Shown: positions 5,736-63,697 of the stretch, piece by piece | How positions within the stretch are numbered: the stretch's first letter is position 1 | Layout of the letters: each line of letters starts with the position of its first letter | Assembly: GCA_040006915.1 (NCBI GenBank) | Contig: JBDTWD010000003.1 | Span: 38,023 to 102,022 of the forward strand | From: Candidatus Woesebacteria bacterium | GTDB lineage: Bacteria; Patescibacteriota; Microgenomatia; UBA1400; UBA12028 | Direction: 5' to 3' | Length of the DNA: 64,000 nucleotides | Translations under genes and position numbers: made by a program | The notes under the pieces: generated by a model | The model's database searches: none | Told to the model about the DNA's origin: nothing | The model's input: the letters and a program-made list of their open reading frames with translations, nothing else

Positions 5736-5746
5736 GAGTCTGTCAA
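5718..5746 (-). promoter_or_regulatory. sigma70-type promoter of the hrcA operon (-35 TTGACA, 17-nt spacer, -10 TATTAT inside the CIRCE loop)
   Basis: Minus-strand reading: TTGACA (5741-5746) + 17 nt + TATTAT (5718-5723). Classic CIRCE-overlapping arrangement. Confidence 0.55.
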
Positions 5747-6210
5747 GTGGAGGAAGATTGGCGTCGTTTCACGAGTTCCCTTGGGGAAAGTTTGCGTGTA
5801 GCGAATACTTTTTCATTGATTCCCAACACCGAACCGACGCCGAATAAGGCAATTGCTCCTCCGGCGACGAGCCAGGTTTCAAACCCGGTCTTCGGGGAGT
5901 GCTTTAGCTTCGCAGAAAGTGAAGCAATTGGTGTGGGGCTTGGGCTTACCTTAGGTGAAGGCGAAACTGTGGGTTTTGGCGTAGTCGTTGGACGAATAGT
6001 CGAGGCTGGGGTAGGTGATGTGGTCCCTGCTGCACATGAACAGGTCGAGGATGAGGGACAACTATTTAAACGACAAACACCAACATAACAGCGATATCCA
6101 GAGCTACAATCTCCATCAACCTCACATTTTTGGTTACACATATTAGTCTGTGCGTAGACAGGGGCAACCGAAAACAAAAGGAAAAGTAGTGTTGTTGCAA
6201 TTTTTTTCAT
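5743..6210 (-). CDS. secreted Cys-rich surface protein: signal peptide, one 8-Cys module, Pro/Thr/Ser linker, SPKTG-like sorting motif + TM + basic tail
   Basis: MKKIATTLLFLLFSVAPVYAQ signal peptide. CNQKCEVDGDCSSGYRCYVGVCRLNSCPSSSTCSC has the same 8-Cys spacing as the repeats at 40.2 kb and 51.7 kb. ...HSPKTG-FETWLVAGGAIALFGVGSVLG-INEK...RKLSPRELVKRRQ. Confidence 0.6.
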   Translation of the reverse strand: MKKIATTLLFLLFSVAPVYAQTNMCNQKCEVDGDCSSGYRCYVGVCRLNSCPSSSTCSCAAGTTSPTPASTIRPTTTPKPTVSPSPKVSPSPTPIASLSAKLKHSPKTGFETWLVAGGAIALFGVGSVLGINEKVFATRKLSPRELVKRRQSSST

Positions 6211-9716: not shown

Positions 9717-9717
9717 A

Positions 9718-32263: not shown

Positions 32264-32545
32264 CTATGGTAGTTTCACCGTATCGACAAACAAGGTTGTT
32301 CCACTGAATTGACCGGTAACCGTCACATTTTTTCCCACATAGTCATCGAGTTTTACCGTGTAGGAATCTAAATCTCTGGTGACACTACCTGGACTTGCGA
32401 TATAGAATTTCCCTGCGGTTTTAGCGATGGTTCCAGAAACCGTGGTAGTCACCGCTGCCTGGCTGGTCGGCGTCGGTGCTACTGGCTGTTTGCTACAGCC
32501 CACACACAGGCCTGCAATTAAACAGAATAGGAATAGTTTTTTCAT
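32264..32545 (-). CDS. small lipoprotein, hypothetical
   Basis: Lipobox LCVGCS after signal peptide. Consistent with lgt in the window. Confidence 0.45.
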   Translation of the reverse strand: MKKLFLFCLIAGLCVGCSKQPVAPTPTSQAAVTTTVSGTIAKTAGKFYIASPGSVTRDLDSYTVKLDDYVGKNVTVTGQFSGTTLFVDTVKLP

Positions 32546-34203
32546 AGTTGTACCTCCTCTTGTGGTCCAATAACTTCTTCACTGCGAGCCAGTTTGTTTC
32601 TCCAATCTTTCACTCTCCCTTGAATTGAAACCAAAATCGAAAGCTGTTCAACGGAGAACATTGCACACAAGAAAGTATAGACGATTGCTCCTGCCAGCGC
32701 TGCAGCTCCAGTCAGCGCAAATAATCCTAAAACTCGAGTTGTATCAAATACCAGTTGATCGAGGAGTTTCATGACCACGTATAGCGTACCTCCCATCAAA
32801 ATTGCAGAAAGAGCCAGTTTCCCTTGTGGGATAAAGAACTCTTTCCAATAGAAGGTTCGTAACCGATGAAAAAGCGTCACCAGTAACAGTAATACTTCAG
32901 TAAAAGCTGCAATCGTAAATCCAAGTGGAATCGCATGAACTCCCCATCCCAAAACTGCAGTCCCAAGCCACATGACAAAAATATTTATTCCCATGGCGAC
33001 AAGCGCAATAAAGAAAGGAACCTTGGTTTCTTTGAGTGCATAAAATGCTCGTAAAAGAACATGGATCATTGCTACCGCTCCGACTGCAATCGCATAAATC
33101 GCAACCAACTGACCAAGCAATACTGTATCTGTCCAAGGAAACTCTTTGGCGCCATATGCAAGTCGAACAATGGGAATACGTAAAACCAGTAAAAGGGCTC
33201 CGGCAGGATACATGAAAAATGCGATTTGATGTAAGGTTTTAATTAGAAGTTTCACAAAACCAACGATGTCGTGATCTTTGGCTTCGGAAGAGAGAAAAGG
33301 TAAAGCGGCTTGAGCAATTGAAACACCAAAAAAGCGAATCGGAGCTGCGATCAAACTTTGGGCAAAAGTCACGCTGGTAAGCAGTGTGCTTCCAAGTGAA
33401 GTTGCGATATACACCCCCACAAAATCTTCTACCGCATTGGTGGTTTGCGTTGCTCCTCTTGGGAGCATGAGTTTAAATACTTCACGGACGTTACTGTTCT
33501 GAAAATTCCAGCGCAAACGGAATACAAACCCGTACCGAATGGCGAGTGGCAACTGGATAGCGAAATGAACTACAGCTCCGAGGAGTACGCCAATCGTCGG
33601 TCCATAAATTCCCACGATAGGAGAGAAGATCAAGGTGCCGACGATAATTCCCAGGTTGTACAGGATTGGAGAAAGTGCGGGTAAGAGAAAACTTCTATTC
33701 GATTGTAAAATCCCTGACAAAAAATTACTCAGGAGGAAGAAAAACTGGGCTCCCAACATTACCCGCATCAGTTGAGCAGCCAACATCACTTGCTCCACAC
33801 TAAATTCTTTTCCGGTAAAGCTGCGAATTAACGGGACGGCAAATATCCCAGCTATAGTCGCAACAATGATGTAGGCAATTCCTAAAATGGTCATCAAGGT
33901 TTGAACAAATTGATGTTTCTCTTCATCTTGATGCAGAAGACGACTGTAGACAGGGATAAAGGTTGCAGATAAGACGCCTACAACCAGTAATTGAAACAAA
34001 AAGTCAGGAATCCGAAACGCAGCAAAGAATGCGTCCAGTAATGGACGACTTTCTCCGACAAAAACCGAGACCAACAAGCGTTTATAGAGTATCCCCAAAA
34101 CCGCCGAGCACACCGAGAGTGAGCCAATCAACGTCGCTGCCGATAGAATAGAGGTCTGCTCTGAAAACAGAAATGACGCGCTTTTTTTAAGGAGAGAAAC
34201 CAT
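32542..34203 (-). CDS. murJ: lipid II flippase MurJ. Likely start MVSLLKK at 34203; the track ORF extends to 34272.
   Basis: ~14 TM. N-terminal ...SRPLLDAFFAAFRIPDF...SATFIPVYS matches the MurJ/MviN conserved region. Confidence 0.85.
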   Translation of the reverse strand: MVSLLKKSASFLFSEQTSILSAATLIGSLSVCSAVLGILYKRLLVSVFVGESRPLLDAFFAAFRIPDFLFQLLVVGVLSATFIPVYSRLLHQDEEKHQFVQTLMTILGIAYIIVATIAGIFAVPLIRSFTGKEFSVEQVMLAAQLMRVMLGAQFFFLLSNFLSGILQSNRSFLLPALSPILYNLGIIVGTLIFSPIVGIYGPTIGVLLGAVVHFAIQLPLAIRYGFVFRLRWNFQNSNVREVFKLMLPRGATQTTNAVEDFVGVYIATSLGSTLLTSVTFAQSLIAAPIRFFGVSIAQAALPFLSSEAKDHDIVGFVKLLIKTLHQIAFFMYPAGALLLVLRIPIVRLAYGAKEFPWTDTVLLGQLVAIYAIAVGAVAMIHVLLRAFYALKETKVPFFIALVAMGINIFVMWLGTAVLGWGVHAIPLGFTIAAFTEVLLLLVTLFHRLRTFYWKEFFIPQGKLALSAILMGGTLYVVMKLLDQLVFDTTRVLGLFALTGAAALAGAIVYTFLCAMFSVEQLSILVSIQGRVKDWRNKLARSEEVIGPQEEVQL

Positions 34204-34342
34204 GATCAGTATAGGATACTCAATAAACTCCAAATACCAAATACCAAATTTAAAGAGCCTTCTCCTCCTCAAGTGCTTTCCAAAACTCAGGGGGAATGCT
34301 ATACTACTTGTTCAGTAAAACCTAGAAATACACGAAATCCGT

Positions 34343-34582: not shown

Positions 34583-34612
34583 CCTCACTTGTGCCAGTGC
34601 CCCTTTTTTTGC
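34583..34612 (+). terminator. possible weak intrinsic terminator after rpsT
   Basis: Short hairpin (CACT-TGTGCC-AGTG) followed by CCCC + a 7-T run. The stem is only 4 bp. Confidence 0.3.
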
Positions 34613-35260
34613 TACGCTGTTACCATGGCGTACAAACCGCAAACTCTTGTTATTCCAAAAATTAACCTTATTCCCCGGGATCCGTTCTATGAAACGACGA
34701 TTGGGAAGATTATGGTCTGGGCGATCCAAGTGGGTCGATACATCATCATTTTTACCGAAATTATTGTTATCATGAGCTTTGCTTCCCGCTTTAAGCTCGA
34801 TCGCGATCTGACAGATCTTACGGCCAAAGTCACACAGAAAAAAGCGATTGTCGAGTCATTTGGTGATATTGAAGCTCGTACTCGTACCATCCAAGATAAA
34901 ATTGCGACAACTCAAAAACTCCTTGCCGACGGAACAGCTATGTTTTATCTGGACAAAGTCACAGCCAGAATCCCGTCTGGAATCGAATTAACTCAACTTA
35001 CTCTTGATCCTGGTACCCTTACTTTTTCAGGAAAAGCTGTAAATTCGAACGTTCTGGCTGCCATGATCGTGGCGTTGCAGCAAGAGCCAGCCTTCACCAG
35101 TGTCTCTGTCGACAAGATCTCTTCAGGACAAGCAAATGATCCAAACGTTTCATTCGCAATTAAACTCACTATTCCACAGAAAGCAGTGGAAGCGAAAGTT
35201 GAAGATGGCAGTACACCAACAACTCCGCCCACATCACCTGATACACCAGTAACACCATAG
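34589..35260 (+). CDS. pilN: type IV pilus assembly protein PilN
   Basis: N-terminal INLIPRD (the PilM-binding INLLP motif), single TM, coiled-coil plus ferredoxin-like periplasmic domain, Pro/Thr C-terminal tail. Confidence 0.7.
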   Translation: MCQCPFFCYAVTMAYKPQTLVIPKINLIPRDPFYETTIGKIMVWAIQVGRYIIIFTEIIVIMSFASRFKLDRDLTDLTAKVTQKKAIVESFGDIEARTRTIQDKIATTQKLLADGTAMFYLDKVTARIPSGIELTQLTLDPGTLTFSGKAVNSNVLAAMIVALQQEPAFTSVSVDKISSGQANDPNVSFAIKLTIPQKAVEAKVEDGSTPTTPPTSPDTPVTP

Positions 35261-35264
35261 ATCT

Positions 35265-35924
35265 ATGCCAATCCAAAGACCATCACTACAACGAACTATT
35301 ATCCAGATGGATTTAAACCGCTTTTATGACAAGCCAGTCACCCGAGTATCTGTGGCATTAGTGCTTTCTCTACTCGCTATTGCTTTTTTCGCACTGGCTG
35401 CGATACGCCCGACTCTACAAACTATGGCAGAGTTATTAAAAGAAATTGATCAGAAAAAAACCTTAGATGAGAAATTGACGCAAAAAATTACGGCACTTAC
35501 TAGTGCTCAACGTCAACTCTCAGAAAAGGAAGCACTATTCCCTGTACTCTCGATCGCAATCCCCTCTAATCCAAACTTTGCTCAGCTCATGACAGTGATC
35601 GAAAAATTAGCAACGGAACGCCAAGTTGAATTTTCTTCGGCACAAATCCAAAAAGTTCCGCTTGAAGGCAAACCACCAAGCGCAACGGCAAAGTATCAAC
35701 TAGTTAGTTATCCTATGACACTTGCCTTCTCGGGATCATATGAGAATTTGATTCTACTCATGCGTGATCTTCAGTCCATTAAACGAATCATTGCAATTGA
35801 TCGATTTGATATTTCTCCTGCGGTACAAAGTGCCCCTACGGAGTTAACCCTTACCCTCGCAATTCGCGCATTCTCGTTTAATCAATTACAAGGAGCTGCT
35901 CCGGCACCGGTGCCTGTTCCGTAA
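35265..35924 (+). CDS. pilO: type IV pilus assembly protein PilO-like
   Basis: Single TM, coiled-coil (KKTLDEKLTQKITALTSAQRQLSEKE), periplasmic domain, Ala/Pro C-terminus, immediately after pilN. Confidence 0.6.
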   Translation: MPIQRPSLQRTIIQMDLNRFYDKPVTRVSVALVLSLLAIAFFALAAIRPTLQTMAELLKEIDQKKTLDEKLTQKITALTSAQRQLSEKEALFPVLSIAIPSNPNFAQLMTVIEKLATERQVEFSSAQIQKVPLEGKPPSATAKYQLVSYPMTLAFSGSYENLILLMRDLQSIKRIIAIDRFDISPAVQSAPTELTLTLAIRAFSFNQLQGAAPAPVPVP

Positions 35925-35931
35925 AATCAGT

Positions 35932-36318
35932 ATGAAAAAAAGATTAACATTTAAACAACTCCTCTTTGAACAACAGATACTGGGAATTTTGCTCTTTTCT
36001 GTATTAGTTGTGTTTTTGTGGGTAGTATCGACTATTTATTTTTCCTACACCAAATCTACACTTACCAGTGAAGATGAAACGGTTGTTATCCCTCTGAGTC
36101 CTATTATTGATGATCGCCCACTACAAGTTTTAAGTAGCCGACGCTGGTGGAGTGACAGTGATCTACAAAGCTTTGCAGTCAGTGTCGTGATACGTGACAG
36201 TAACGGAAAAACGACGACTTCTCAAACCCAAACAGGAGCAGCTTCACCATCTGCTACCCTTGCGCCCACTCCTGTCCCCACACCACTTCCAGCCTCTGGT
36301 TCTGCCCAAACGCAGTAA
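35932..36318 (+). CDS. membrane-anchored protein with Thr/Pro-rich C-terminus (PilP-position, hypothetical)
   Basis: N-terminal TM, small domain, PT-rich tail. 8-nt gap after pilO. Confidence 0.4.
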   Translation: MKKRLTFKQLLFEQQILGILLFSVLVVFLWVVSTIYFSYTKSTLTSEDETVVIPLSPIIDDRPLQVLSSRRWWSDSDLQSFAVSVVIRDSNGKTTTSQTQTGAASPSATLAPTPVPTPLPASGSAQTQ

Positions 36319-36365: not shown

Positions 36366-37682
36366 ATGGCCCAATCGTTTCTTTCGACCAAAAGAATTCC
36401 CACCATTGTTGGTATTGTGATTTTGAGTGCTGGCTTGATCGGAGGAATCTTCTTAGCTAACTCTGTTACTACGGGCTTTCTTCCGAGAGCTTCCCCCGAG
36501 TCAACTCCAAAGAACTTAAAAATCACCAATGTCACCGATACCAGTTTTACTGTTTCTTGGGTAACCGATAGCAAGACAACCGGCTACGTAAAGTATGGCC
36601 CCAGCAGTAGTTCAATTAGCAGTGTTACTACTGATGATCGAGATCAAATTGGTGGTAGTGTTGGCCAATTTAAAACACATCATGTTACCCTTCGGGGATT
36701 AACTGCATCCACAACCTATTTCTATAAAATCGGTACTGGTACCAGCGAACTATACGACGATAGTGGCAAACCTTATCAAACAAAAACCACCGTTCCAATC
36801 ACCTCACCTGCAAAAACCTTGTACGGAGAAGTTCTTTCCAGTGATACAACCGGAGCCACTGGCGCCTTAATTTATATTAGTGGAGATTCAATTGCCCCAC
36901 TCTCTACCATTACGCAAAGTGGTGGAAGTTTTGCCTTATCACTAGCGATCGCCCGAGCGAAAGACGGTGTTAGCAGTGCCACTTTTACGGATGACACCAA
37001 GATTTCATTGCTCGTCATTAGTCCGATAGATGATACGACTAGTGTAATCGATGCAACGATTTCTCAAGGTCAGCCCTTCCCTGATATTGTATTAGGTAAG
37101 AATCAAAATCTCACAAGTCCCACACAAACACCCCAACCAGAAGCAGAAAATACTTCCGCTCCAACGCAAAGCAAGTTTACCAGTCAATTACTCTCAGCTC
37201 CGGTCGAGATTCCCGCGTCAGTCAGTGCCAACTTTCTTTCAATAAGTGCACCAACTGATCAATTTGTTTCAACTGTTGCTCGTCCAGTCTTAAGTGGTAC
37301 AGCTTCAAAAAGCGCAACCGTTTCGTTAGCTCTTAAAGGACCATCTACGTTAACAACGAGCACGAAAGCGACTGCAACGGGTGCATGGACATACACACCA
37401 GTAACGAGCTTGAAAAATGGCGCCTATACTCTTACAGCTAGTACCACAATCAGTGGAAAGAAAGAAACACAAAACGTTTCTTTCTCCATTTTGGTCCCCA
37501 CGCCTACGCCCAAAACCAGCACTGCTTCTGCAGTTTTAGGACTGCCATCCACTGAATCAGCAGATTTGGTATCCGGATCCACTGAAATCACCATTTCTTT
37601 TGCTCTCGCTGGTTTGTTATTTATCGGTTCTGGAGCTTTTTTCGCCACAATTCAGTCAAGTGATCACAAAAAAAGAAAATAG
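36366..37682 (+). CDS. surface protein with fibronectin type III-like domain, Ser/Thr-rich regions and C-terminal TM + basic tail
   Basis: NLKITNVTDTSFTVSWVTDS...YVKYG...TTYFYKIG is an FN3/PAP-N-like motif pattern. C-terminal ...TEITISFALAGLLFIGSGAFFATIQSSDHKKRK. Confidence 0.55.
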   Translation: MAQSFLSTKRIPTIVGIVILSAGLIGGIFLANSVTTGFLPRASPESTPKNLKITNVTDTSFTVSWVTDSKTTGYVKYGPSSSSISSVTTDDRDQIGGSVGQFKTHHVTLRGLTASTTYFYKIGTGTSELYDDSGKPYQTKTTVPITSPAKTLYGEVLSSDTTGATGALIYISGDSIAPLSTITQSGGSFALSLAIARAKDGVSSATFTDDTKISLLVISPIDDTTSVIDATISQGQPFPDIVLGKNQNLTSPTQTPQPEAENTSAPTQSKFTSQLLSAPVEIPASVSANFLSISAPTDQFVSTVARPVLSGTASKSATVSLALKGPSTLTTSTKATATGAWTYTPVTSLKNGAYTLTASTTISGKKETQNVSFSILVPTPTPKTSTASAVLGLPSTESADLVSGSTEITISFALAGLLFIGSGAFFATIQSSDHKKRK

Positions 37683-37727: not shown

Positions 37728-39923
37728 ATGTCAGACGATCAAAAAACACCACCACCATCGCCACTCTCATCCACACAAGGAACTGCAAATTTGGATGATG
37801 TGCTGTCATCGTTGGAAAAACAGTTACCACAAGATTCAGCTACACCAGCGCCTGTTGACCCAGTCTCACCACCTAGTCCAACCCCACCTGTTACCCCTCC
37901 CGAGCCAATGCCTCCACTTACACCTGTAGAAGAAAAACCTGTTGAGCCAGTACCTCCGGTAATTCCACCTGCTCCAGAGCCAATGGCTTCAGCAGCCTCT
38001 ACCCCGACTCCACCGCCAGTTCCAACTTCTTCATCATTTGGTATTGAAGAAAACCACATTGAACCAGTAGCCACACCGGTTCCGGTAGCTACTCCTGAAC
38101 AAAGTCCCGTACTAACTGAAACGCTCAGAGAGCACCCTATGGTTGCGACGCAAACAACAACGACAACTGCTCCTCCTCCAAGAAAAAAAGGATTATTTGG
38201 AATTGATCCTAAGCTTATTGTGGGTGCTGCCGTTGTTTTCATTTTGGCAATTGGATCTGTTGCTGCATATTTGACAATTGGAGCACCAGCAGGTTCTTTG
38301 GATACGAGAAATCAAGCTTCCGGATGTAGTATTGTCTACAATCAAAACACTTTTACACTTACAAATTGTGTGGGATCTGGAACTATCACAAGGTTTAATG
38401 GACCGTCATGTCCAACAACACAGAATAAAGTAAGTGAGGTTCCTGCAACCGATGGTACTATTTCGCCTCAGCCGCCAGCAGGTCAATGTCAACAGGTCGA
38501 TCATAATTTTGGCGGAAATGGACCAGACGGGCTTCCAATTGGGGCTGGTGGAGTCTGTTCCTGTAATAGCGCTCCTTCCCCTACTCCTCAACCACGTGCT
38601 TGTGGTGAAGCATGTACCACAACAGCAAACTGCCGTAACCCAAGTACTGGAGGCTTTCCAGTTGAATGTCGCAACGGCAAATGTCAACTTCCCTTGACTG
38701 GTCCATACGCTTGTCCGGAAGGACAGTCTTCAGGTTCAATTTGTACCTGTGCAGCCAAAGTTCAATGTGGACAGCAATGTGGCCCTGCAGCTGGAGGGAA
38801 GTTGTGTAACCCTGGCAGTGTCTGCGGATTCTTGACTCCTTCAAACGCGTGCAAAGTGAACGGCGTTGATCAAAGTACAAAACAATACTGTATCCCTGTC
38901 AATCCAAATGGTGGATATAGCTCCAAGCGCTGTGACACCACTCCGGCAATCAACTATATTGCTGCTGACTCTTTGGTAAAACCAGACGGAACACAAACAA
39001 ACTTAACCGCTGCGGATGCAGTAGTTGCATGTACCCCAGTCTGTGGAGATAAGATTGTAGCTGGAAATGAAGAGTGTGATGCTGGAAGTGAAAATGGAAA
39101 GCCAGGATCAACTTGTGATGCAACGTGCAAAATGCGCAACGTCTGTGGCGACACTTGCTCTGCCGCTAGTGAATGCAATAAGCATTACGTTACCTTGCGA
39201 TGTAGTGTAGGCGCAACTGGAACAACCGAACGATACTGTGGATTAGATGCAATCGTTGAAAACGGAGTCACCATTGAAGAGAATAGTACCCGCTTCATCA
39301 AACCAGGAATGTGGAGAATCTCAAGTACTGCAGCTTTGAGTGGTGGATCTGAAATATACGACCACGAACAAGGTGCCACAATCTCCTTCTGGACCTCAGC
39401 AACAAATGTAACTCTCGTCTATACCAAAGCTTCAAATCGTGGAACCTTTAATATCCTTGTCGACGGAAAGCAGCAATCGGCAACTATCAATCAAAATGGG
39501 ACAACCACACAATACAAGCAAAATGCACTTATTACGGTTCGAGATGCCAGTATTCCTGAATATGTCTGCACCTCAAATACTTGCCGCCTGTCAACCAGCC
39601 CTGAGAGTCCGACCTGTGATGGGAATATTCCTTCTCCATCACCAACTCCATCGGCTCCACCACTCGCCTGTCTCCGTATTTCCTCTGATAATCCAACTCC
39701 AGTATTGGGAAGCCAAGTGCGATTCACTTGTGGCCTCGTCACTGGTGTTGATCGCTATGAATTCCGCTACAAGATGACATTCAATGGAGTTGATGGAGCT
39801 GGTGGAACACTCGCTGCAACTAATAATTTGTCTGCTCCTCTTACTGTTGATCAACCTGGAGATTATAAAGCACAGTGTCGGCCATGTGTTGGTCAGGCAT
39901 GTGCACCTTGGCAGAATTGGTAA
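37728..39923 (+). CDS. large bitopic Cys-rich protein: Pro-rich N-terminal ~165 aa, one TM, ~540-aa Cys-rich ectodomain including a myxo-type CGD..EECD repeat
   Basis: PPPSP/PVTPPEPMPPLTP N-terminus. TM LIVGAAVVFILAIGSVAAYLTIG. More than 50 Cys. CGDKIVAGNEECDAGSENG matches the myxococcal cysteine-rich repeat pattern. ACGEACTTTANC...C resembles the 8-Cys module. Confidence 0.55.
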   Translation: MSDDQKTPPPSPLSSTQGTANLDDVLSSLEKQLPQDSATPAPVDPVSPPSPTPPVTPPEPMPPLTPVEEKPVEPVPPVIPPAPEPMASAASTPTPPPVPTSSSFGIEENHIEPVATPVPVATPEQSPVLTETLREHPMVATQTTTTTAPPPRKKGLFGIDPKLIVGAAVVFILAIGSVAAYLTIGAPAGSLDTRNQASGCSIVYNQNTFTLTNCVGSGTITRFNGPSCPTTQNKVSEVPATDGTISPQPPAGQCQQVDHNFGGNGPDGLPIGAGGVCSCNSAPSPTPQPRACGEACTTTANCRNPSTGGFPVECRNGKCQLPLTGPYACPEGQSSGSICTCAAKVQCGQQCGPAAGGKLCNPGSVCGFLTPSNACKVNGVDQSTKQYCIPVNPNGGYSSKRCDTTPAINYIAADSLVKPDGTQTNLTAADAVVACTPVCGDKIVAGNEECDAGSENGKPGSTCDATCKMRNVCGDTCSAASECNKHYVTLRCSVGATGTTERYCGLDAIVENGVTIEENSTRFIKPGMWRISSTAALSGGSEIYDHEQGATISFWTSATNVTLVYTKASNRGTFNILVDGKQQSATINQNGTTTQYKQNALITVRDASIPEYVCTSNTCRLSTSPESPTCDGNIPSPSPTPSAPPLACLRISSDNPTPVLGSQVRFTCGLVTGVDRYEFRYKMTFNGVDGAGGTLAATNNLSAPLTVDQPGDYKAQCRPCVGQACAPWQNW

Positions 39924-39925: not shown

Positions 39926-40735
39926 ATGAAAAATCGAAAGTCTATCATCGCTGGTTTCATACTTTTTGTCCTAGTAGTGGCTGCTATTGGAGTGGTGATT
40001 ATCACTCGCCGAACTTCAGGAACACAATCTGTTGCTCCAACAGCTCCACAATCACAGCCAGCAGCAACATCTTGTACCCTTTCCTTTACGGTCGAAGGGA
40101 CACCTGGCCCTTCTGAAAGTCCAACCCCAACCCCTTCTGCATCACCGACAGCAAGCCCAAGTCCAACTCCAACCGCTACTCCTGTTGCTCAATGTAACAG
40201 TACTTGTGCGTCCGATAGTGACTGTCCTGCATCTATGACTTGTTCTAGTGGAACGTGTCGTAATCCAGCGTGTACAGACTCAGACAGCTGTGTATGTGCG
40301 ACTGCAACACCTGCTCCTACACCAACACCGACCCCAGGACCATCGTGTAACAGTGAATGCACCACCAATGATCAATGTCCGTCAAACTTAATCTGTGCTT
40401 CAGGTCGCTGCAGAATGCCAGGCTGCACTGCTCTGGATAGCTGTACTTGTGGACCAACCTGTAACTCAACCTGTACAACCAACTCTGACTGTCCAAGTGA
40501 TCTGATCTGTGCCTCGAATCAATGTCGCCGACCTGGATGTACAGCTCTGGATACGTGTTCATGTGGTACACCTGGACCAACAGCTACCCCTACAACTCCA
40601 CCAGTTGTGGTCCAAAGCACGCCTGTACCACAGGAAGTCCTTCCAGTCGCAGGTTCTTCCCTCCCAACAGCAGGGTTAGTAGGAACTGGGATCATCACTA
40701 TCATCATCGGAATCCTAGGGCTACTAGCACTCTAA
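39926..40735 (+). CDS. Cys-rich repeat surface protein with C-terminal LPTAG + TM sorting signal (start MKNRKS at 39926, 2 nt after the upstream gene)
   Basis: N-terminal TM/signal, PT-rich linker, three tandem 8-Cys modules, ...EVLPVAGSSLPTAG-LVGTGIITIIIGILGLLAL. Confidence 0.6.
   Translation: MKNRKSIIAGFILFVLVVAAIGVVIITRRTSGTQSVAPTAPQSQPAATSCTLSFTVEGTPGPSESPTPTPSASPTASPSPTPTATPVAQCNSTCASDSDCPASMTCSSGTCRNPACTDSDSCVCATATPAPTPTPTPGPSCNSECTTNDQCPSNLICASGRCRMPGCTALDSCTCGPTCNSTCTTNSDCPSDLICASNQCRRPGCTALDTCSCGTPGPTATPTTPPVVVQSTPVPQEVLPVAGSSLPTAGLVGTGIITIIIGILGLLAL
40193..40564 (+). repeat. three tandem copies of a ~35-aa 8-Cys module (CNSxCxxxxDCPSxLICASxxCRxPxCTALDSCxCG) encoded in-frame
   Basis: R1 AQCNSTCASDSDCPASMTCSSGTCRNPACTDSDSCVC. 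R2 PSCNSECTTNDQCPSNLICASGRCRMPGCTALDSCTCG. R3 PTCNSTCTTNSDCPSDLICASNQCRRPGCTALDTCSCG. Confidence 0.7.
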
Positions 40736-43829: not shown

Positions 43830-46163
43830 TTAAAGCTTCGCTCGAACGGCTGTTTCTTGTTCCACAATATCTCGTGGACGACCGTATTTAATCCTTGAGA
43901 GCTCACGAATGAGTTCAGCGCGTTTGGGATCCATCAGTTTCTTCTCCCCTTCAATATCGCGCGTTAAGTCCATGCTAAATGGAGGAACAGGCTCGTTGTT
44001 CACAATGGTTTTGATGTAGACGTGATATTTTTCAATATTGGTTAAATCTGTTTCAGAAAATGTTGGCGCAAATTCATGTTGCAGAAAATTTGCATCCGGA
44101 ACACCAACACGGAAAGTTACCATCGAGCCAACGTTGCCAAAGACCGCGTTCTTTACGTCTTCTTCGATCTGAGCCACAAACTGGTTGGCAACAATCAAAT
44201 TTAGTCGGTACTTACGAGCTTCAGAAAGAATGGTAGCGAAATCTTCAGTTGCATAGTTTTGGAACTCATCGACGTAGAGATAGAAATCTCGACGCTGCTC
44301 CATCGGCATATCTTGACGACTCATGGCAGCCGTTAAAATCTTTGGCACCAAAATCAAACCTAAGAACTTGGCATCCTCTTCTCCCAATTTTCCTTTGGAT
44401 AAATTGACCAAGAGAATCTTTCCTTCATCCATAACCTGGCGGAAATTAAAAGCGCTTTGACTTTGGCCAATAATGTTTCGCATTACCTTATTGGTAATGA
44501 ATTTGCCAAATTTCGAAACGATGTAGTCTAGAACTTCAGACTTATGGAAATCACTCGTCTGGGCAATCTGGTCCGTCCAGTAGCGACGCACAACCGGATC
44601 TTTCACTTTCGGAAGCAGTTCCTGCACATACTTTTGATCAGTCAAACAGCGCACGAGTTCAATAAAAGTAGCCCCTGGTTCAGCCATAATAGTTAACATG
44701 GCGTTACGAATGGCATGCTCAAATCGTGGACCGATGATACCGGTTTTGTGTGGATCGTAGAGCTTGTACATTAACGCGATAATTGATCCCACCACAAAAT
44801 GCATCTGTTCTTCGGTCTGCGCTTCCATAATATTTAAACCCATCGGTCGTTCAGTATCAGATGGATTAAAGTAAATAACTTCTTCAGCTCGTTCTGGAGG
44901 GATAAGCTGCATGATATCTTCGACCAACTCTCCATGTGGATCCAAAACTGCCATCCCTTTTCCAGCTCTGATATCCTGCAAAATCATATCTTTTAAGAAT
45001 TCTGATTTTCCGGTACCAGTCTTTCCGACAATATACATGTGACGTTGACGATCTTTTTCCTCAATAAAGATCTCTTTCTTTGTCCCTCGATAATTACTTG
45101 AACCTAAGCGCATTCCAGAAGTTGCGATACTGGCCGGAGCCGGAGCCGACTTAGCTTTAAGCCAATTAATGTGGTGGGTTTCAACCGTTTTATTAGGGAA
45201 ATGCAGAATTGTAGACATCTCTTCAGAATTTAAAACAAATGCCCCGCGATCAAATAACGGCATGTAGCGATAAATGAAATCGACCATGAATAATTGCTTG
45301 AACAAAATTCTCGATCGCTTAAAGCTATTCGTTGGACTACTAAACTGAGCAAAAGCACCAAGAATGTTAGTTAAGTGAGAATTAGCCCTCCTGGCATCAA
45401 TTGATGAGACCACAACACGCAGAGCTACTTTAAATCCTGGTTTGGAAGCTTTGGTCTCAATGGCATCCAGTTTTTTAGGGTCATGATTATAGGAAGCTTT
45501 TTGTGGATCAGATTCTTTTTTCTTCGTATCGGCAACATACTTGCTTCCAGCTCGCTGCCATCCGGGACCAGCGGGCTCTAACACAAATTGCACAATTGCC
45601 CCCTCACCTTCATCCATTTTCGAAAGCGCTGAACTTAAGAGTGATAGTCCATCAGTGGGAAGATCTTTATATACTTTAATTGGTAGATACGTTTGACTGG
45701 CTAGAGTCAAAGCTGCAAACGCAACTTTGCCACCTTCTGAGAAAATATTGTATTCTTCCGCCTCTTCAATCTCTGCAGATGGATAGGCTCCATAAATTTG
45801 TTTTTCAATCAAATCAGTTAACTCCGCTGGAACCGTAACGTAAAAGGCAATGCTTTCGTGTAACGCCACAATTTCAAACGTAAAGTGATCTTCAGGTTTA
45901 AGAATTGATCCCACTCCTTCATTTTTTAAACTGTATAAACCGGCAAACATCTGTTCAGCTGCATCAATTTTTATTTCGTTCTCTTTAGGTAACAATACTT
46001 TGAGAACCTTAAAGCCAAGTGAGTATTTTTCTCTCCCACGGAATCGAAACCATTGGACAACCATATAGACGAGCCCTGCTCCGAAGATCAACGGGATCGC
46101 AAACAAGGCCAGGCTTGTGAGAATTTGGGTAACGACAATTGCAATATCAGTGGTTGGATCCAT
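43830..46163 (-). CDS. VirD4/TraG/TraD-family type IV coupling protein-like membrane ATPase
   Basis: Two N-terminal TM helices, Walker A YIVGKTGTGKSEF, Walker B FYLYVDEFQNY, C-terminal ...SEARKYRLNLIVANQFVAQIEE (TraG-D_C-like). Confidence 0.65.
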   Translation of the reverse strand: MDPTTDIAIVVTQILTSLALFAIPLIFGAGLVYMVVQWFRFRGREKYSLGFKVLKVLLPKENEIKIDAAEQMFAGLYSLKNEGVGSILKPEDHFTFEIVALHESIAFYVTVPAELTDLIEKQIYGAYPSAEIEEAEEYNIFSEGGKVAFAALTLASQTYLPIKVYKDLPTDGLSLLSSALSKMDEGEGAIVQFVLEPAGPGWQRAGSKYVADTKKKESDPQKASYNHDPKKLDAIETKASKPGFKVALRVVVSSIDARRANSHLTNILGAFAQFSSPTNSFKRSRILFKQLFMVDFIYRYMPLFDRGAFVLNSEEMSTILHFPNKTVETHHINWLKAKSAPAPASIATSGMRLGSSNYRGTKKEIFIEEKDRQRHMYIVGKTGTGKSEFLKDMILQDIRAGKGMAVLDPHGELVEDIMQLIPPERAEEVIYFNPSDTERPMGLNIMEAQTEEQMHFVVGSIIALMYKLYDPHKTGIIGPRFEHAIRNAMLTIMAEPGATFIELVRCLTDQKYVQELLPKVKDPVVRRYWTDQIAQTSDFHKSEVLDYIVSKFGKFITNKVMRNIIGQSQSAFNFRQVMDEGKILLVNLSKGKLGEEDAKFLGLILVPKILTAAMSRQDMPMEQRRDFYLYVDEFQNYATEDFATILSEARKYRLNLIVANQFVAQIEEDVKNAVFGNVGSMVTFRVGVPDANFLQHEFAPTFSETDLTNIEKYHVYIKTIVNNEPVPPFSMDLTRDIEGEKKLMDPKRAELIRELSRIKYGRPRDIVEQETAVRAKL

Positions 46164-51090: not shown

Positions 51091-51903
51091 ATGAATAAAA
51101 GAGTTCTCATCGGTTTGATTCTCATCATCACAGTTATAGTGGGAATTGGACTCGCTGTCAGTTTATACCTCTCAAGTCAGACGCAAGAGAATCGAAATCA
51201 AGCCTGGACCACAACGCAATCAGCCAACAGTACCTGTGGCGTTGATGGAAAAGCGGTCATCGTCGTCACGTTTTCAAATACAGAACCTGCGAATACTCCT
51301 GCAGACGACATGACTGTCTCTGCTACAGATACCCAGAGCAATCAAAGTGTCAGTATTGGATTAGTCAAAGGTGGGGAAACACTTTCAGCCTCAATTTTGA
51401 CAGGATTTGCTTCGCTAGCGGCTGGAAACGTCCAGCTCCGTCTGACTTGGGCAAATGGAAGAGCAGGAACGGATACTCGAACTGCAAGTTACGGTGCGGT
51501 CTCAACTTGTCTAGTTGCTACCCCCTCCCCAACCCCTGAGATAACCCCTGTTCCCTCACCCACTCCCGAGGTAACACCTAGTCCTACACCAATAACGACA
51601 TCAACTCCTCAGCCAACCAGTACACCGACTAATACTCCTCCCCCCACCTCAGGACCAAGTTGTAACTCACAATGCACCGTCAACACCGATTGTCCCTCAG
51701 ACTTAATCTGTGCATCAAACCAATGTCGCAGACCTGGATGTACTGCCCTTGACTCCTGCAACTGTGGAACACCGGCACCGGCGACACCCACCTCAACTCC
51801 ACAGATATTACCAGTCGCAGGTGGAAGTGGACCGACACTATTTATTCTCACAGCTGGGATGTTTATTCTCATTCTTGGAGTCCTGGGTTTTACGAGACTG
51901 TGA
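51091..51903 (+). CDS. Cys-rich module surface protein with PT-rich linker and C-terminal LPVAGG + TM sorting signal
   Basis: N-terminal TM. TPSPTPEITPVPSPTPEVTPSPTP linker. One 8-Cys module PSCNSQCTVNTDCPSDLICASNQCRRPGCTALDSCNCG (module at 51661-51765). ...QILPVAGGSGPTLFILTAGMFILILGVLGFTRL. Confidence 0.6.
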   Translation: MNKRVLIGLILIITVIVGIGLAVSLYLSSQTQENRNQAWTTTQSANSTCGVDGKAVIVVTFSNTEPANTPADDMTVSATDTQSNQSVSIGLVKGGETLSASILTGFASLAAGNVQLRLTWANGRAGTDTRTASYGAVSTCLVATPSPTPEITPVPSPTPEVTPSPTPITTSTPQPTSTPTNTPPPTSGPSCNSQCTVNTDCPSDLICASNQCRRPGCTALDSCNCGTPAPATPTSTPQILPVAGGSGPTLFILTAGMFILILGVLGFTRL

Positions 51904-53027: not shown

Positions 53028-53660
53028 CTATTTTGCTAATAGCGCATCTACAGTGGATTTCAAATCATTTACGTCGGTTGCGACGTTATTTACGTAAAAG
53101 GTTGGAGTCGCATTGACTCCAAGAGTATTGGCATCGGTTTGATCAGCTGTGATCCTCGCTTCTACTTCTGGACTCACGCGATCTTTCTTAAATTTCTCTA
53201 CATCAAGTTTTAAATCTTTTGCGTACCCATCAAACTTAGAAGTTGGGTCAGCATCCTCTTCCCACTCTGATTGGGTTTCAAACAATTTGTCATGCATCTC
53301 CCAAAATTTTCCTTGATTAGCAGCTGCTTCAGCAACTTTGGACGCCGCATACGCATTTTTATGAACAGTAGTGAGTGGATAGTGACGATACACCAATCGC
53401 ACGCTCTCTGTAGCTGTCTGAGTAATCAAATCAACTAACGGTTGTGCAGCTTTACAGGCCGGACACTGGAGATCGGAAAATTCAACGATCGTGACTTTGG
53501 CATCCTCTTTCCCTTTGCTGTTTTTGGTTTGTCCTAACACTACTTTCGAATCAACTGGAGCAACCGGAGCATTCGCTTTTTTGGTAAACAAAAATGCAAC
53601 CGCAACTACGGCAATACATGTAACAGCGAGTGAACCTAAAAGGAGCCAAAGATTTTTCAT
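53028..53660 (-). CDS. DsbA-like thiol:disulfide oxidoreductase (second paralog)
   Basis: N-terminal TM/signal. CPAC active site (FSDLQCPACKAAQPL). Confidence 0.75.
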   Translation of the reverse strand: MKNLWLLLGSLAVTCIAVVAVAFLFTKKANAPVAPVDSKVVLGQTKNSKGKEDAKVTIVEFSDLQCPACKAAQPLVDLITQTATESVRLVYRHYPLTTVHKNAYAASKVAEAAANQGKFWEMHDKLFETQSEWEEDADPTSKFDGYAKDLKLDVEKFKKDRVSPEVEARITADQTDANTLGVNATPTFYVNNVATDVNDLKSTVDALLAK

Positions 53661-60630: not shown

Positions 60631-61116
60631 CTATTCTAGAAACCCTTCCACAATCATATCTTCAGCAAGTTTCTGTGGGATTCCCCGGCTTTCTAGATAA
60701 AACAAATGTTCTTCAGGAATCCTTGAGATACTCGCAGCGTGAGAACATTTCACATCATCAGTCTTGATTTCGAGTTCGGGAATGGCTTCAGCTTTGGCCT
60801 TGTCAGACAGTAATAAAATTCGTTCCTCTAAAAATGACTGGGTGTCTCCACAGTCTTCCTCGATAATGATCCGACCAAAAAACCGAATATGGCTCTTGTC
60901 TTCTGCTACTCCCTTGAGTATCGTTTTGGCTCGCGTGTGAGGAGCTTTATGCACAATCGTTAAGTTAATGTTTATGTCATCATCATTTTTTCCGTGAAAC
61001 ATTCCTACGATTGATATTTCATCTCCAGGATTAAGAATTTCGACTCGATAGTCACCTGATTTGGTCAAGGTAATGTTTTTCATATTAGCCAACTGACCCT
61101 TCCATCTCATGATCAA
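60631..61116 (-). CDS. sufD: SufD-like protein, short form (161 aa, C-terminal SufBD domain only). TTG/alternative start likely.
   Basis: ...ILLLSDKAKAEAIPELEIKTDDVKCSHAASISRIPEEHLFYLESRGIP matches the SufB/SufD C-terminal signature (LEI..DDVKCSHGAT). Confidence 0.7.
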   Translation of the reverse strand: MIMRWKGQLANMKNITLTKSGDYRVEILNPGDEISIVGMFHGKNDDDININLTIVHKAPHTRAKTILKGVAEDKSHIRFFGRIIIEEDCGDTQSFLEERILLLSDKAKAEAIPELEIKTDDVKCSHAASISRIPEEHLFYLESRGIPQKLAEDMIVEGFLE

Positions 61117-63697
61117 TCAATCGATTCATTTCAATTGCATACTCAAGTGGGAGCTTTTTCACAAGATCATTGACGAATCCATTCACAATCATTTTACGAC
61201 TATCTTCTTCCGTTACACCACGACTCATCAAATAAAATAGTTGCTCATCACCAATGCGACTCACTGTAGCTTCATGTTGGATCTCGACCTGATCATTCAT
61301 AATCCGATCAGTGGGATACGTGTCGGAACGTGATTTTCCATCCAAAAGCATGGCATCACACACCACCGTATTTTTACTATGATGCGCCTGGGGTGACACC
61401 ATCACCATTCCCCGGTAACTAGTACGTCCGCCATCTTTACTAATGGATTTAGAAATAATAGTTGAGCTCGTATATGGAGCTAAATGCATTGCTTTGCTTC
61501 CAGTATCTTGATGTTGCCCGGCTCCTGCTAAGGCCATTGATAATGTTTCTCCCTTGGCACCCTTTCCTACTAACAAGAAAGATGGATATTTCATGGTGAG
61601 TTTGGAACCCATGTTAAAGTCTGTCCATACCATTGTTGCTTCTTCCTCAACACGAGCACGTTTAGTGACCAAGTTATAGACATTTTTGTACCAATTCTGG
61701 ATAGTTGTGTACTGACATCTAGCTCCTTTTTTCACGAAAATCTCAACCACTGCAGAATGCAGTGATCCGGAGGAAAATGCCGGAGCGGTACAATTATGAA
61801 CGGCAACTCCCCCTGCTACATAGCTTTCGTCATCTCGAACACTAAAGTTATAGACTGGCAAATTTTTTACAGTTTTTCTTTCAATTGAACGAATAGGAAC
61901 GTACATATACTTTTCATCGATATGATAAAAAGTAGCTCGTTTTTTATTATGTAATCGGTCTTCTACTTTCTCTTCTGCAATTTTTGCAAAATCTGATAGG
62001 TACTGTCCGCCGATCACACACACATACATTGTCTTTCTCCCTTCATACGATCTGCTTTGCCAATTTAAGCTCGATGCGATGTTGAGACGCAAAAGTATTT
62101 GTCGTGCTTGTGAAGCAAGTGTTTTTGAGGTCGTACACAGACGAAATACTTCTTTTAATCCATGTTTATGAGTTTTTTTGTAATAGTTCCCATCACCTCT
62201 ATACCACCCTAACAGCAACTGCTTCTGTTTTTCTAAAGACTCTTTCATCATCCAAAGTGGAATTTTTTTTTCGTCACACTTTGTTCCGAACTGTTTAAAT
62301 AATCGACACAATCTTGTAGAAGAAACTACGACAGAAGTTCCGTGGTTCGTTTTATGTGTTTGCTCACTAATTCTGTTCTCGTCAAAAACAATCCTAATAA
62401 GCTTTTTTACATCATCAATATATTCTCTCTCATTACTGTTAAATGAAAAATTCAGATAATGTCCACTACTAATACTCCCCTCTGCCAGATAATATCCAAC
62501 TAACCGAAAGAAATCCTCTGTAGAAGGGATTGACACTTCTTCAAGAAAGGGGCCATGTCTTCCGGCACCACGTAATACTGGAAAACGAACAGTTTTGTTT
62601 TTGAAAATCTCTCTATCTATAGGAATACAAGCATAGTCGTATTTGGAAATATTTTTTGTTTCTGTCCATGAAGGAATCCATTTACTGTTTCTTTCATTTT
62701 TTCTCTGTCTCTTCACTATAAGAAAAGGATGCTCTTGTGTTGTCTCTATTTTCTCTTTTGGAGAACCAACAAGTTCTATCGTATAGAGGTCTCCAGAATA
62801 CGGCCGTACCTGCGTGTAATACACCTCTTTGTAACGTCCTTCATGTGTTAGAACTAAATCTCCCTTCTCAATTGACTCAATTGCCGCTTCACCCATATCG
62901 GTTTGAATGCGTGTCCCCGCAGTGAAACAGCCCTCCACGTAGTGAACACTCGCTCCTTCATCCACTATGATCAACGTGCGTTCAAATTGACCTGCATTTG
63001 GAGAATTAATACGAAAATACGCTTGGAGAGGCATCTTCACATCCAACCCCTTGGGTACATACACAAACGATCCCCCCGACCAAACAGCAGTATTGAGGGC
63101 CGCAAATTTATTATCTCCGGACGGAATATTTTTGCCAAAGTATTCTTTGATGAGATCAGGATATTGTTTTAGGCCCTCATCCATTGACAAAAAGATTACT
63201 CCTTGTTCCTCCCAGATGTTTTGCAGAGATCCATAGACCACTTCACTATCGTATTGGGCTTTCACACCAGCCAGAACATCTCGTTCTGCCTGAGGAATTC
63301 CCAACTTATCAAAAGTTGCTTTCACGTCAGCCGGAACATCATTCCAAGACTCAACAGACTTATCTGTCGGTTTTAAGTAGTAATGAATTTTATCGTAATC
63401 GATTTCCGACAATACTCCTCCCCAGGTTGGGGTTTGCATGCCTTCAAATATCTCCAAGGCTTTGAGACGGATCTCTAGCATCCACTCTGGTTCCTCTTTA
63501 ATGTGTGAGAGTTCTTCTACTACTCGTTTGGACAATCCAGGTTTAGAAATAAAACTATATTTGTCAGTTGGATACGAAAACCCTGCCGTATATGTCGAGT
63601 CGACTACGGAGTCATCAAACTGCGTCGTATGTTTGTTTGCAAATCTGGACATAATTATAAAACTGAAAGCAGTGTTTTCACTCTCGTTTCTTAGCAC
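61085..63697 (-). CDS. sufB: Fe-S cluster assembly protein SufB interrupted by an in-frame intein (870-aa precursor; ~491-aa mature SufB)
   Basis: N-extein ...LIIVDEGASVHYVEG | C-extein CTAPAFSSGSLHSAVVEI...VVCDAMLLDG...FYLMSRG. Host sequence is SufB-like at both ends. Confidence 0.9.
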   Translation of the reverse strand: MLRNESENTAFSFIIMSRFANKHTTQFDDSVVDSTYTAGFSYPTDKYSFISKPGLSKRVVEELSHIKEEPEWMLEIRLKALEIFEGMQTPTWGGVLSEIDYDKIHYYLKPTDKSVESWNDVPADVKATFDKLGIPQAERDVLAGVKAQYDSEVVYGSLQNIWEEQGVIFLSMDEGLKQYPDLIKEYFGKNIPSGDNKFAALNTAVWSGGSFVYVPKGLDVKMPLQAYFRINSPNAGQFERTLIIVDEGASVHYVEGCFTAGTRIQTDMGEAAIESIEKGDLVLTHEGRYKEVYYTQVRPYSGDLYTIELVGSPKEKIETTQEHPFLIVKRQRKNERNSKWIPSWTETKNISKYDYACIPIDREIFKNKTVRFPVLRGAGRHGPFLEEVSIPSTEDFFRLVGYYLAEGSISSGHYLNFSFNSNEREYIDDVKKLIRIVFDENRISEQTHKTNHGTSVVVSSTRLCRLFKQFGTKCDEKKIPLWMMKESLEKQKQLLLGWYRGDGNYYKKTHKHGLKEVFRLCTTSKTLASQARQILLRLNIASSLNWQSRSYEGRKTMYVCVIGGQYLSDFAKIAEEKVEDRLHNKKRATFYHIDEKYMYVPIRSIERKTVKNLPVYNFSVRDDESYVAGGVAVHNCTAPAFSSGSLHSAVVEIFVKKGARCQYTTIQNWYKNVYNLVTKRARVEEEATMVWTDFNMGSKLTMKYPSFLLVGKGAKGETLSMALAGAGQHQDTGSKAMHLAPYTSSTIISKSISKDGGRTSYRGMVMVSPQAHHSKNTVVCDAMLLDGKSRSDTYPTDRIMNDQVEIQHEATVSRIGDEQLFYLMSRGVTEEDSRKMIVNGFVNDLVKKLPLEYAIEMNRLIDHEMEGSVG
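61793..62929 (-). mobile_element. intein (~379 aa) with LAGLIDADG-type homing endonuclease domain inside sufB
   Basis: Begins CFTAGTRI (Cys1) after host ...YVEG. Ends ...GGVAVHN followed by +1 Cys of host CTAP. Internal LVGYYLAEGS and LLGWYRGDGN are LAGLIDADG-like blocks. Confidence 0.8.

Follow-up and report, generated by a model that had tools for sequence, protein, structure and literature searches.

The described unit closest to the element treated here is the DPY module of Drosophila Dumpy (Pfam PF21164, Dumpy_DPY; structure 1OIG), which has four cysteines and two disulfides in about 21 residues and alternates with EGF modules in giant animal matrix proteins. Its published consensus is Cx5Cx5Cx4C, and DPY and the related CREMP modules have a C1-C3/C2-C4 disulfide connectivity (PMC12723725). 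Another short cysteine-rich unit, the kissper domain of the kiwellins, contains six cysteines in three disulfides, and a survey of kiwellins reported none in bacteria (PMC9813671). Here we describe an eight-cysteine module of 35 residues that is encoded in five strict copies, in three different genes, in a stretch of 64,000 nucleotides (referred to below as the window; GC content 42%) of a Candidatus Woesebacteria bacterium (assembly GCA_040006915.1, contig JBDTWD010000003.1, positions 38,023 to 102,022). The organism belongs to the Candidate Phyla Radiation (CPR, or Patescibacteria), ultra-small and mostly uncultivated episymbionts whose surface molecules are largely annotated as 'hypothetical proteins'.

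We read the module as an extracytoplasmic four-disulfide mini-domain with a DPY-type core that serves as a rigid bead on envelope-anchored surface proteins, and we give this reading as a whole a probability of about 0.6. The module is best classed as a lineage-specific elaboration of the known DPY-type unit and not as a new fold class, the full eight-cysteine unit being undescribed: literature searches found no paper on the eight-cysteine module, and none on DUF7107, PF21164, or PF23416.

An eight-cysteine module with a DPY-like core

A six-frame search with the regular expression C-x3-C-x5-C-x5-C-x4-C-x4-C-x5-C-x-C gave exactly five matches in the window, and a degenerate DNA pattern, made of the eight cysteine codons and an arginine codon after the fifth cysteine (C5), returned the identical five sites, with 0.00 matches expected by chance from 100 dinucleotide-preserving shuffles. 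When a profile hidden Markov model (HMM) of 50 unique modules was used, the five copies scored 42.8-48.9 bits (domain E 3e-12 to 4e-14), and the next-best open reading frame (ORF) of the window only 9.6 bits. Five strict copies against none expected rule out a chance origin of the module; low complexity was rejected as an explanation as well. The first-pass annotation of this DNA, made from the sequence alone, had reported the module at three loci with three copies in tandem at one of them, and the searches recovered precisely this arrangement (Table 1). The tandem array at 40193-40564 runs from C1 of the first repeat (R1) through C8 of the third (R3), and R2 and R3 adjoin via a 'GPT' junction. 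The diverged module of the third carrier protein has orthologous copies on three other contigs (L089, L091, L111).

The 50 unique modules align without gaps, all eight cysteines are invariant, and an arginine directly follows C5 in 48 of them. The cysteine spacing, which had been claimed to be conserved, is strict in the five window copies and in the 50 aligned modules. R3 and the copy at 51.7 kb share 86% amino-acid and 70% nucleotide identity and use different codons at 16 of their 30 identical residues. More generally, the copies show many synonymous differences while their protein sequences remain similar, which argues for purifying selection on the modules. The moderate nucleotide identity between loci noted in the first-pass annotation is thereby confirmed, and the codon differences and purifying selection support its proposal of an old paralogous family instead of a recent duplication.

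The stretch from C2 to C5 closely resembles the DPY module. Its spacing is Cx5Cx5Cx4C in all five window copies and all 50 aligned modules, identical to that of DPY; the non-cysteine residues N-S-D-C-P-S and C-R-x-P are shared too, and both units appear as small, rigid, tandem extracellular beads. Carrier 1, the protein with the tandem array, matched Dumpy_DPY at 38.1 bits (cut-off 27), a score summed over its three C2-C5 stretches, and 26 of the 50 single modules matched at E <= 0.01. One relative (P0004) bears a precomputed PF21164 annotation. In a comparison of the module profile with PDB sequences, the best match was 1oig_A, the nuclear magnetic resonance structure of the Dumpy DPY module (E 9.5e-5), with ECVLNSDCPSNQACVNQKCRDP aligned to tCttnsdCpsglvCssgvCRnp. 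The DPY match covers 21 of the 35 residues and four of the eight cysteines (profile positions 4-24, module residues 5-25), and C1, C6, C7, and C8, which lie outside it, are as invariant as the core cysteines. Neither Pfam nor NCBIfam contains a model spanning all eight cysteines, NCBIfam has nothing for the module, and eight-cysteine CPR proteins mostly have no match in Pfam or a sub-threshold DPY match. The earlier description of the module as novel and as no recognised named domain is thus not supported in that form: its four-cysteine core is of a named kind, and the eight-cysteine whole is undescribed in the libraries searched.

A search of 1.84 billion cluster representatives with the profile of 50 modules yielded 2487 proteins at E <= 1e-3; close inspection covered 147 new proteins among 150 listed of these. 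They fell into two tiers. At least 65 representatives (65 of the 147 new proteins among the matches listed) were full-length, with one to five strict eight-cysteine modules, and 46 of these 65 carriers end in P-x-x-G and a hydrophobic tail. The core-only tier consisted of large proteins that match profile positions about 4-25 alone, in up to 49 copies each, with a unit of four cysteines, C-x5-C-x5-C-x4-C ('DC..G..C..G.C'), and Pfam labels such proteins DUF7107 (PF23416), Dickkopf_N, or EB module. The four-cysteine multi-repeat proteins found with the module profile pass DUF7107 at 62.9-277 bits; carrier 1 fails this model (11.1 bits against a cut-off of 24.6), and five of the 50 modules match it at E <= 0.01. 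Unlike the CPR module, these repeats have neither C1 nor the C6/C7/C8 tail as a fixed unit, and they form long head-to-tail arrays in large proteins, whereas the CPR beads number one to five and are spaced by Pro/Thr linkers. Many of these large proteins have a cysteine shortly past a signal-peptide-like N-terminus and, as read from these N-termini, look lipoprotein-like. The arthropod 'DPY' two-disulfide hairpin has, in these proteins and in the module, close bacterial sequence look-alikes, which bear on how the Dumpy_DPY, DUF7107, Dickkopf_N, and EB families relate to each other. A word-indexed protein search with the 43-aa module alignment returned no candidate.

Other small cystine-rich units resemble the module less closely. 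The kissper domain (PDB 4PMK, 4X9U; SCNGPCRDLNDCDGQLICIKGKC) aligns to positions 1-25 of the module, where C1-C5 are spaced identically (hhalign E 1.6e-5, 79% probability), and its sixth cysteine, as read from the sequence, lies 10 residues past C5, which is the spacing of C7 (C-x3-C-x5-C-x5-C-x4-C-x10-C); this pattern resembles the natural six-cysteine variants of the module described below. In contrast to the module, kissper is restricted to plants, is located N-terminal to a double-psi beta-barrel, is unrepeated, and lacks the C6-C8 pair. The module carriers have no barwin-like double-psi barrel domain and so fail as kiwellins; the likeness to kissper extends over a short stretch and could have arisen by convergence. 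Knottins and two-disulfide EGF-like peptides (MCoTI-II, EETI-II, CREMP) share with the module a cystine-stabilised beta-hairpin and a length of about 30-37 residues. In a Foldseek search against the PDB, the top matches were a two-disulfide knottin intermediate, kiwellin (second best, TMq 0.60), knottins, and Dkk1, none of them significant, and no significant structural match with the I-IV/II-V/III-VI pairing of knottins was obtained. The myxococcal repeat (TIGR02232/DUF4215), which had been suggested as an alternative identity, gave no match on the modules, and no EGF domain was matched in the carriers.

Structure prediction with AlphaFold2 (AF2) gave a single R3 module a predicted local distance difference test score (pLDDT) of 80.5 and a hairpin at C4/C5. 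In the model of full-length carrier 1, helices at residues 3-30 and 250-268 enclose three beads of identical secondary structure (pLDDT 85-90) on linkers with pLDDT below 50; R1 forms a beta-hairpin at residues 105-112 (pLDDT about 90) and R2 one at 156-163 (pLDDT about 85). Patterns of cysteine loss suggest how the cysteines pair. Of 1055 profile-aligned units, 272 have all eight cysteines and 517 have C2-C5 alone, and 12 retain C1-C5 and C7 but have no C6 and no aligned C8. When the raw sequences were scanned more strictly, eight unique modules were found in which C1-C5 and C7 are present and C6 and C8 are both missing, such as CNSICSTNSDCPISMTCNSGRCRNPQNPEDANC. That C6 and C8 disappear together while C7 stays implies disulfides C6-C8 and C1-C7, and the analogy with DPY, applied to the cysteines that remain, suggests C2-C4 and C3-C5. 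Four disulfides per module, as proposed in the first-pass annotation, is the most reasonable reading, and from co-loss and analogy we infer the map C1-C7, C2-C4, C3-C5, and C6-C8.

Carrier proteins, relatives, and taxonomic range

All three strict carriers of this CPR bacterium are Pro/Thr-rich and extracytoplasmic, in agreement with the earlier description. Carrier 1 consists of an N-terminal transmembrane (TM) helix, the sequence 'VAPTAP', a lone cysteine (Cys50), Pro/Thr linkers with the three modules, and LPVAG followed by a hydrophobic helix. The conserved Cys50 (40073-40075) lies within a 'C.L.FT' motif shortly after 'VAPTAP.S.P.A' and is the odd one in the cysteine count of the protein (25 = 3x8+1); it is retained even in relatives without a module and could exist as a free thiol or form a disulfide between molecules. 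At the C-terminus, the frame [LV]P..G...PT..G is conserved, with P240, G243, P247, and G255 invariant in 19 homologues. In carrier 2, an N-terminal TM segment is followed by a beta-rich domain of ~100 aa bracketed by two cysteines, a Pro/Thr linker, the module, and LPVAG with a hydrophobic tail (51808-51900). This protein equals a database entry (P0013; 'MAG: hypothetical protein ABI758_02955 [Candidatus Woesebacteria bacterium]') in length and in all compared segments (the N-terminal 40 aa, the module, and the C-terminal 45 aa). Carrier 3 has a classical signal peptide (MKK...VYA|Q) with the module directly after it, then a Pro/Thr/Ser linker and a C-terminal part (5746-5898) made of SPKTG, a TM segment, and a basic tail.

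Table 1. Coordinates of the module copies, their carriers, and neighbouring features in the 64-kb window
Feature	Position	Strand	Description or support
Carrier 1	39926..40735	+	ORF; 269 aa, 25 Cys
Module R1 (CNSTCASDSDCPASMTCSSGTCRNPACTDSDSCVC)	40193..40297	+	strict regular expression and DNA pattern; HMM 46.6 bits
Module R2 (CNSECTTNDQCPSNLICASGRCRMPGCTALDSCTC)	40346..40450	+	regular expression and DNA pattern; HMM 48.6 bits
Module R3 (CNSTCTTNSDCPSDLICASNQCRRPGCTALDTCSC)	40460..40564	+	regular expression and DNA pattern; HMM 48.9 bits
C-terminal sorting-like signal of carrier 1 (LPVAGSSLPTAGLVGTGIITIIIGILGLLAL)	40640..40732	+	frame conserved in homologues
Carrier 2	51091..51903	+	270 aa, 10 Cys
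Single module of carrier 2 (CNSQCTVNTDCPSDLICASNQCRRPGCTALDSCNC)	51661..51765	+	regular expression and DNA pattern; HMM 46.9 bits
Carrier 3	5743..6210	-	155 aa, 8 Cys
Diverged module of carrier 3 (CNQKCEVDGDCSSGYRCYVGVCRLNSCPSSSTCSC)	6034..6138	-	regular expression and DNA pattern; HMM 42.8 bits
731-aa Cys-rich membrane-anchored protein	37728..39923	+	directly upstream of carrier 1
Possible degenerate eight-cysteine copy (CGEACTTTANCRNPSTGGFPVECRNGKCQLPLTGPYACPEGQSSGSICTC)	38601..38750	+	residues 292-341 of the 731-aa protein; Cys order kept, loops expanded; weak
MurJ	32542-34272		divergent, upstream of PilN-like
PilN-like	34589-35260	+	Pfam
PilO-like	35265-35924	+	Pfam
TM/Pro-Thr ORF	35932-36318	+	128 aa
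FN3/Pur_ac_phosph_N/Big_13 protein	36366-37682	+	438 aa; Pfam
DsbA-like membrane-anchored thiol-disulfide oxidoreductase	53028..53660	-	Thioredoxin_4 91.5 bits, DSBA 54.9 bits

A fourth, degenerate copy-bearing protein had been proposed in the 731-aa product encoded next to carrier 1, which has a Pro-rich N-terminus and a TM segment at residues 163-185. The order of its cysteines agrees with the module, the module HMM found no match in this protein, and the degenerate copy is therefore plausible at most. Its support comes from a pairwise BLAST match (E 6e-4) to the strict module of a protein on contig L062, which aligns with the 731-aa protein, including the C-terminal domain. Likewise, the statement that all carriers end in a sorting-like signal is correct for the three strict carriers and incorrect for the 731-aa protein.

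A search with carrier 1 found 60 proteins, most of them with one to three strict modules in a common frame: an N-terminal TM helix (consensus ...LAGVAIFTAVRLYQLRQ..VAPTAP.S.P.A), the odd cysteine, Pro/Thr linkers with modules, and a C-terminal [LV]P..G...PT with a hydrophobic end. Three members (P0045, P0046, P0056) have the frame and no module, so frame and module are separable. Elsewhere, the module is fused to cohesin, DUF11/DUF7507, SdrD_B with DUF4215, and PKD domains, and in a Kerfeldbacteria protein it is combined with DUF4215 and AhpC-TSA. A 227-aa type IV pilin on contig L082 (4361-5044, + strand; N_methyl 31.5 bits, motif KSGFTLIELL) has a Pro/Thr linker and a single strict eight-cysteine module at its C-terminal end, which means that the module can be displayed on a pilus subunit.

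The taxonomic range was sampled by scanning one genome per GTDB species with the degenerate DNA pattern; the 119 stretches among the matches listed are a sample and not a census. Over half were low-complexity DNA rich in TGY codons, which the module HMM removed, leaving about 45 genuine carriers among the matches listed. Every trustworthy label among these is a CPR one (Woese-, Ames-, Shapiro-, Gottesman-, and Cerribacteria, WWE3, 'Microgenomates group', 'Patescibacteria group'), and Kerfeldbacteria also belong to the named carriers of the family. Four contigs (L088, L091, L111, L117; TPA_asm records of metagenome-assembled genomes) are labelled 'uncultured Pseudomonadales' or 'Gammaproteobacteria'. 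Their gene order follows that of the window, and the neighbouring genes have 80-95% amino-acid identity; synteny also extends to contigs that carry the labels Woesebacteria, Cerribacteria, and Patescibacteria (L089, L097, L077). On the strength of this synteny and identity to a Woesebacteria-like window, the four proteobacterial labels were rejected and treated as errors. The other carriers labelled Pseudomonadales or Gammaproteobacteria have a low-GC, CPR-type architecture, and by analogy we consider their labels unreliable. Among 120 matches listed from viral contigs there was no true module, all being low-complexity. On the evidence available, the module is confined to the CPR among carriers with trustworthy labels; the lineage restriction that the first-pass annotation had raised holds to this extent, and may have an exception in two contigs with an archaeal label, which are considered below.

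Proposed role and competing explanations

According to our preferred reading, the C2-C5 core would form a DPY-type cystine-stabilised beta-hairpin, akin to the DUF7107/Dickkopf_N/EB repeats, to which the CPR would have added a C1-C7 staple that fastens the 'CNxxC' extension at the N-terminus to the tail at the C-terminus and a local C6-C8 loop (C-x5-C-x-C). Carriers would be exported by Sec and oxidised once outside the membrane, one candidate oxidase being the DsbA-like protein of the window; their N-terminal TM or signal segment, together with a sortase-type signal at the C-terminus ([LVS]Px[AST]G and a hydrophobic segment), would hold them in the envelope. The modules would then be small, rigid, protease-resistant beads on disordered and possibly glycosylated Pro/Thr linkers, and would act in stalk-like or adhesin surface proteins as structural spacers or as surfaces for contact. 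Pilins, cohesin, DUF11, PKD, and SdrD_B proteins of the CPR to which it is also attached suggest that the module is a mobile cassette, and such fusions argue for a role in building or presenting surface and attachment structures rather than in catalysis. The company of these domains and the analogy with DPY-type fibre modules point to a structural, spacer, or contact role.

The window encodes a candidate enzyme for the oxidation step. The DsbA-like protein has an N-terminal TM segment and a CPAC active site (53454-53465), its gene lies 1.1 kb from that of carrier 2, and it is a plausible candidate for the extracytoplasmic oxidase of the modules or of all cysteine-rich surface proteins of this small genome. 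With regard to anchoring, genomes of Peribacteria and Microgenomates, both CPR, encode sortases (PMC7143001, PMC4736985). The carriers resemble LPXTG sortase substrates in their N-terminal export signal, their Pro/Thr-rich, wall-spanning stalk, and their C-terminal [LS]PxxG with a hydrophobic segment; they differ in that the motifs are LPVAG, LPxSG, and SPKTG and in that most tails have no basic end. In the window, LPVAG (carriers 1 and 2) and SPKTG (carrier 3) are each followed by about 20 hydrophobic residues, with a clear basic tail only in carrier 3. The tails of two relatives pass the NCBIfam model TIGR01167 (LPXTG_anchor, cut-off 15.9), P0070 with 21.5 bits and L097 with 17.1 bits. As to the linkers, a PMT-family protein O-mannosyltransferase of 801 aa is encoded on contig L121 (10578-12983, - strand), directly downstream of a module gene (P0008), which hints that the Pro/Thr linkers could be O-glycosylated; the window ORFs scanned include no PMT.

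Several observations weigh against this reading. All single-module scores shown lie below the Dumpy_DPY cut-off, and carrier 3 has no match at all; the cysteine motif is very short, so that a likeness to DPY read from it may reflect homology or convergence alike. The proposed disulfide pairing depends on co-loss patterns and on analogy. Tails encoded in the window stay below the LPXTG_anchor cut-off (carriers 1 and 2 no match, carrier 3 12.4 bits), most lack the usual basic tail, and the sortase motif TLxTC is absent from the 64-kb window and from 45 carrier loci. Finally, two contigs (L050, L058) that carry a Methanosarcinales archaeon label encode proteins of about 1470-1590 aa with 121-170 cysteines and one strict module of a 'GCDGGY' subtype; these could be mislabelled CPR or DPANN contigs or a genuine occurrence outside the CPR.

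The reading that competes most directly takes the module for an ordinary member of the Dumpy DPY family (PF21164) that shares an ancestor with the animal module, horizontal transfer being one possible route, and regards the extra cysteines as mere flanks, so that nothing new would be present. The score of carrier 1, the matches of about half of the single modules, the precomputed annotation of P0004, the 1OIG match, and the identical spacing all speak for it. However, these matches leave out four equally invariant cysteines and 14 of the 35 residues, the highest single-module score shown (R3 alone) is 25.3 bits, carrier 2 (21.2 bits) and the relatives P0067 and P0068 fall below the cut-off, carrier 3, P0065, and P0073 are not matched in the Dumpy_DPY scan, and EGF neighbours are missing. 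Moreover, four-cysteine-only repeats are abundant in bacteria and are labelled DUF7107, Dickkopf_N, or EB, not DPY, which makes a broad ancient or convergent class likelier than a recent transfer; we regard simple DPY membership as rather unlikely. We think of a more ambitious version of our own reading in similar terms: that this is a Patescibacteria-restricted eight-cysteine family whose carriers are membrane-held and wall-linked via [LV]PxxG and, together with the conserved operon encoding PilN-like, PilO-like, FN3, and Cys-rich proteins, form a CPR host-attachment structure is a tentative proposal.

A function as knottin-like bioactive peptides (protease inhibitor, pore former, or antimicrobial) that the episymbiont displays or releases against its host or competitors would fit weak likenesses to squash trypsin inhibitors, carboxypeptidase inhibitor, conotoxins, and spider toxins, and to the pore-forming kissper of kiwellin (PMC9813671). 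Such a function appears improbable: all toxin and inhibitor matches are short or non-significant, the carriers are anchored at both ends with no conserved processing sites around the modules, a knottin-type third disulfide between C3 and C4 is lacking, and the module is fused to structural and adhesin domains and to a pilin. This pilin would in turn suit the idea that module proteins are dedicated parts of a type-IV-pilus-like or envelope-spanning machine in which the module mediates assembly contacts. The gene order from murJ and the pilN-like gene to the module gene is identical in the window, on the contig encoding P0001, and on L121, and about 10 more carrier loci of named Microgenomates lineages (L104, L045, L027, L024, L041, L113, L015, L053, L102) match this stretch of the window in tblastx, a comparison of sequence and not of gene order. 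We give this idea little credence as well, given that carriers 2 and 3 and many relatives are found in unrelated contexts, that the frame also exists without the module, and that neither a PilM/B/C/D gene nor a canonical prepilin motif turned up among the window ORFs examined. Least credible by far is that the cysteines bind metal (zinc, iron-sulfur, or metallothionein-like) instead of forming disulfides. A cysteine content of 8 in 35 residues and the terminal CxC motif might be taken for it, but metal binding was rejected on account of the extracytoplasmic topology, the presence of a DsbA-like oxidase, the absence of CxxC pairs and of a conserved histidine, the loss of cysteines in pairs, and the likeness to solved disulfide-bonded modules.

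Under the preferred reading of a bead with a DPY-type core, the module reveals no new mechanism, and its likeness to an arthropod matrix module is mildly surprising. The searchable signature C-x3-C-x5-C-x5-C-x4-C-R-x3-C-x5-C-x-C with its 37-column profile, the testable disulfide map, and the operon context offer a starting point for the annotation of CPR proteins by the hundreds to thousands and for picking candidates for studies of the envelope and of host contact.

Gene neighbourhoods and further observations

Carrier 1 is encoded by the last gene of a tightly packed cluster on the + strand with intergenic gaps of 2-47 nt, which begins with the pilN-like gene (Table 1). P0001, whose contig of 835 kb has the same cluster, is 71% identical to carrier 1. 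A promoter and terminator scan of the operon gave nothing above shuffle expectation. Carrier 2 is flanked by two GT4 glycosyltransferases, and carrier 3 adjoins hrcA.

Besides the possible degenerate module, the 731-aa protein shows other cysteine-rich segments. Residues 439-468 (39042-39131; CGDKIVAGNEECDAGSENGKPGSTCDATCK) resemble a DUF4215 myxococcal-type cysteine repeat at a sub-threshold score of 20.5 bits (cut-off 27); in the module carriers P0064 and L022, this repeat passes the cut-off, and this co-occurrence suggests that both cysteine-rich units travel together in CPR surface proteins. Two segments at 39144-39176 (CGDTCSAASEC...) and 39567-39617 (...CTSNTCRLSTSPESPTC), ~130 residues apart, resemble halves of a six-cysteine-type module, and a weak CE2_N-like match is found at residues 549-596; the split halves may reflect a domain inserted in the C3-C4 loop, or coincidence.

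In other parts of the window, an 870-aa SufB/SufD-type protein (61085-63697, - strand) has its SUFBD core split by an intein, with Hint_2, Intein_splicing, and LAGLIDADG_3 matches at residues about 257-635, and a second, short SUFBD-core ORF (60631-61116) adjoins its gene. The genes at 7697-11993, for two ATP-grasp proteins (RimK-like, ATPgrasp_ST), a MATCAP-like peptidase, and a membrane protein of the 7TM_transglut type, form a cluster reminiscent of known ATP-grasp cassettes for peptide modification. A 777-aa TrwB/VirD4-type coupling ATPase with DUF87 (43830-46163, - strand) is unusually conserved relative to its neighbours, with 81-87% amino-acid identity in L088, L117, L097, and L077.

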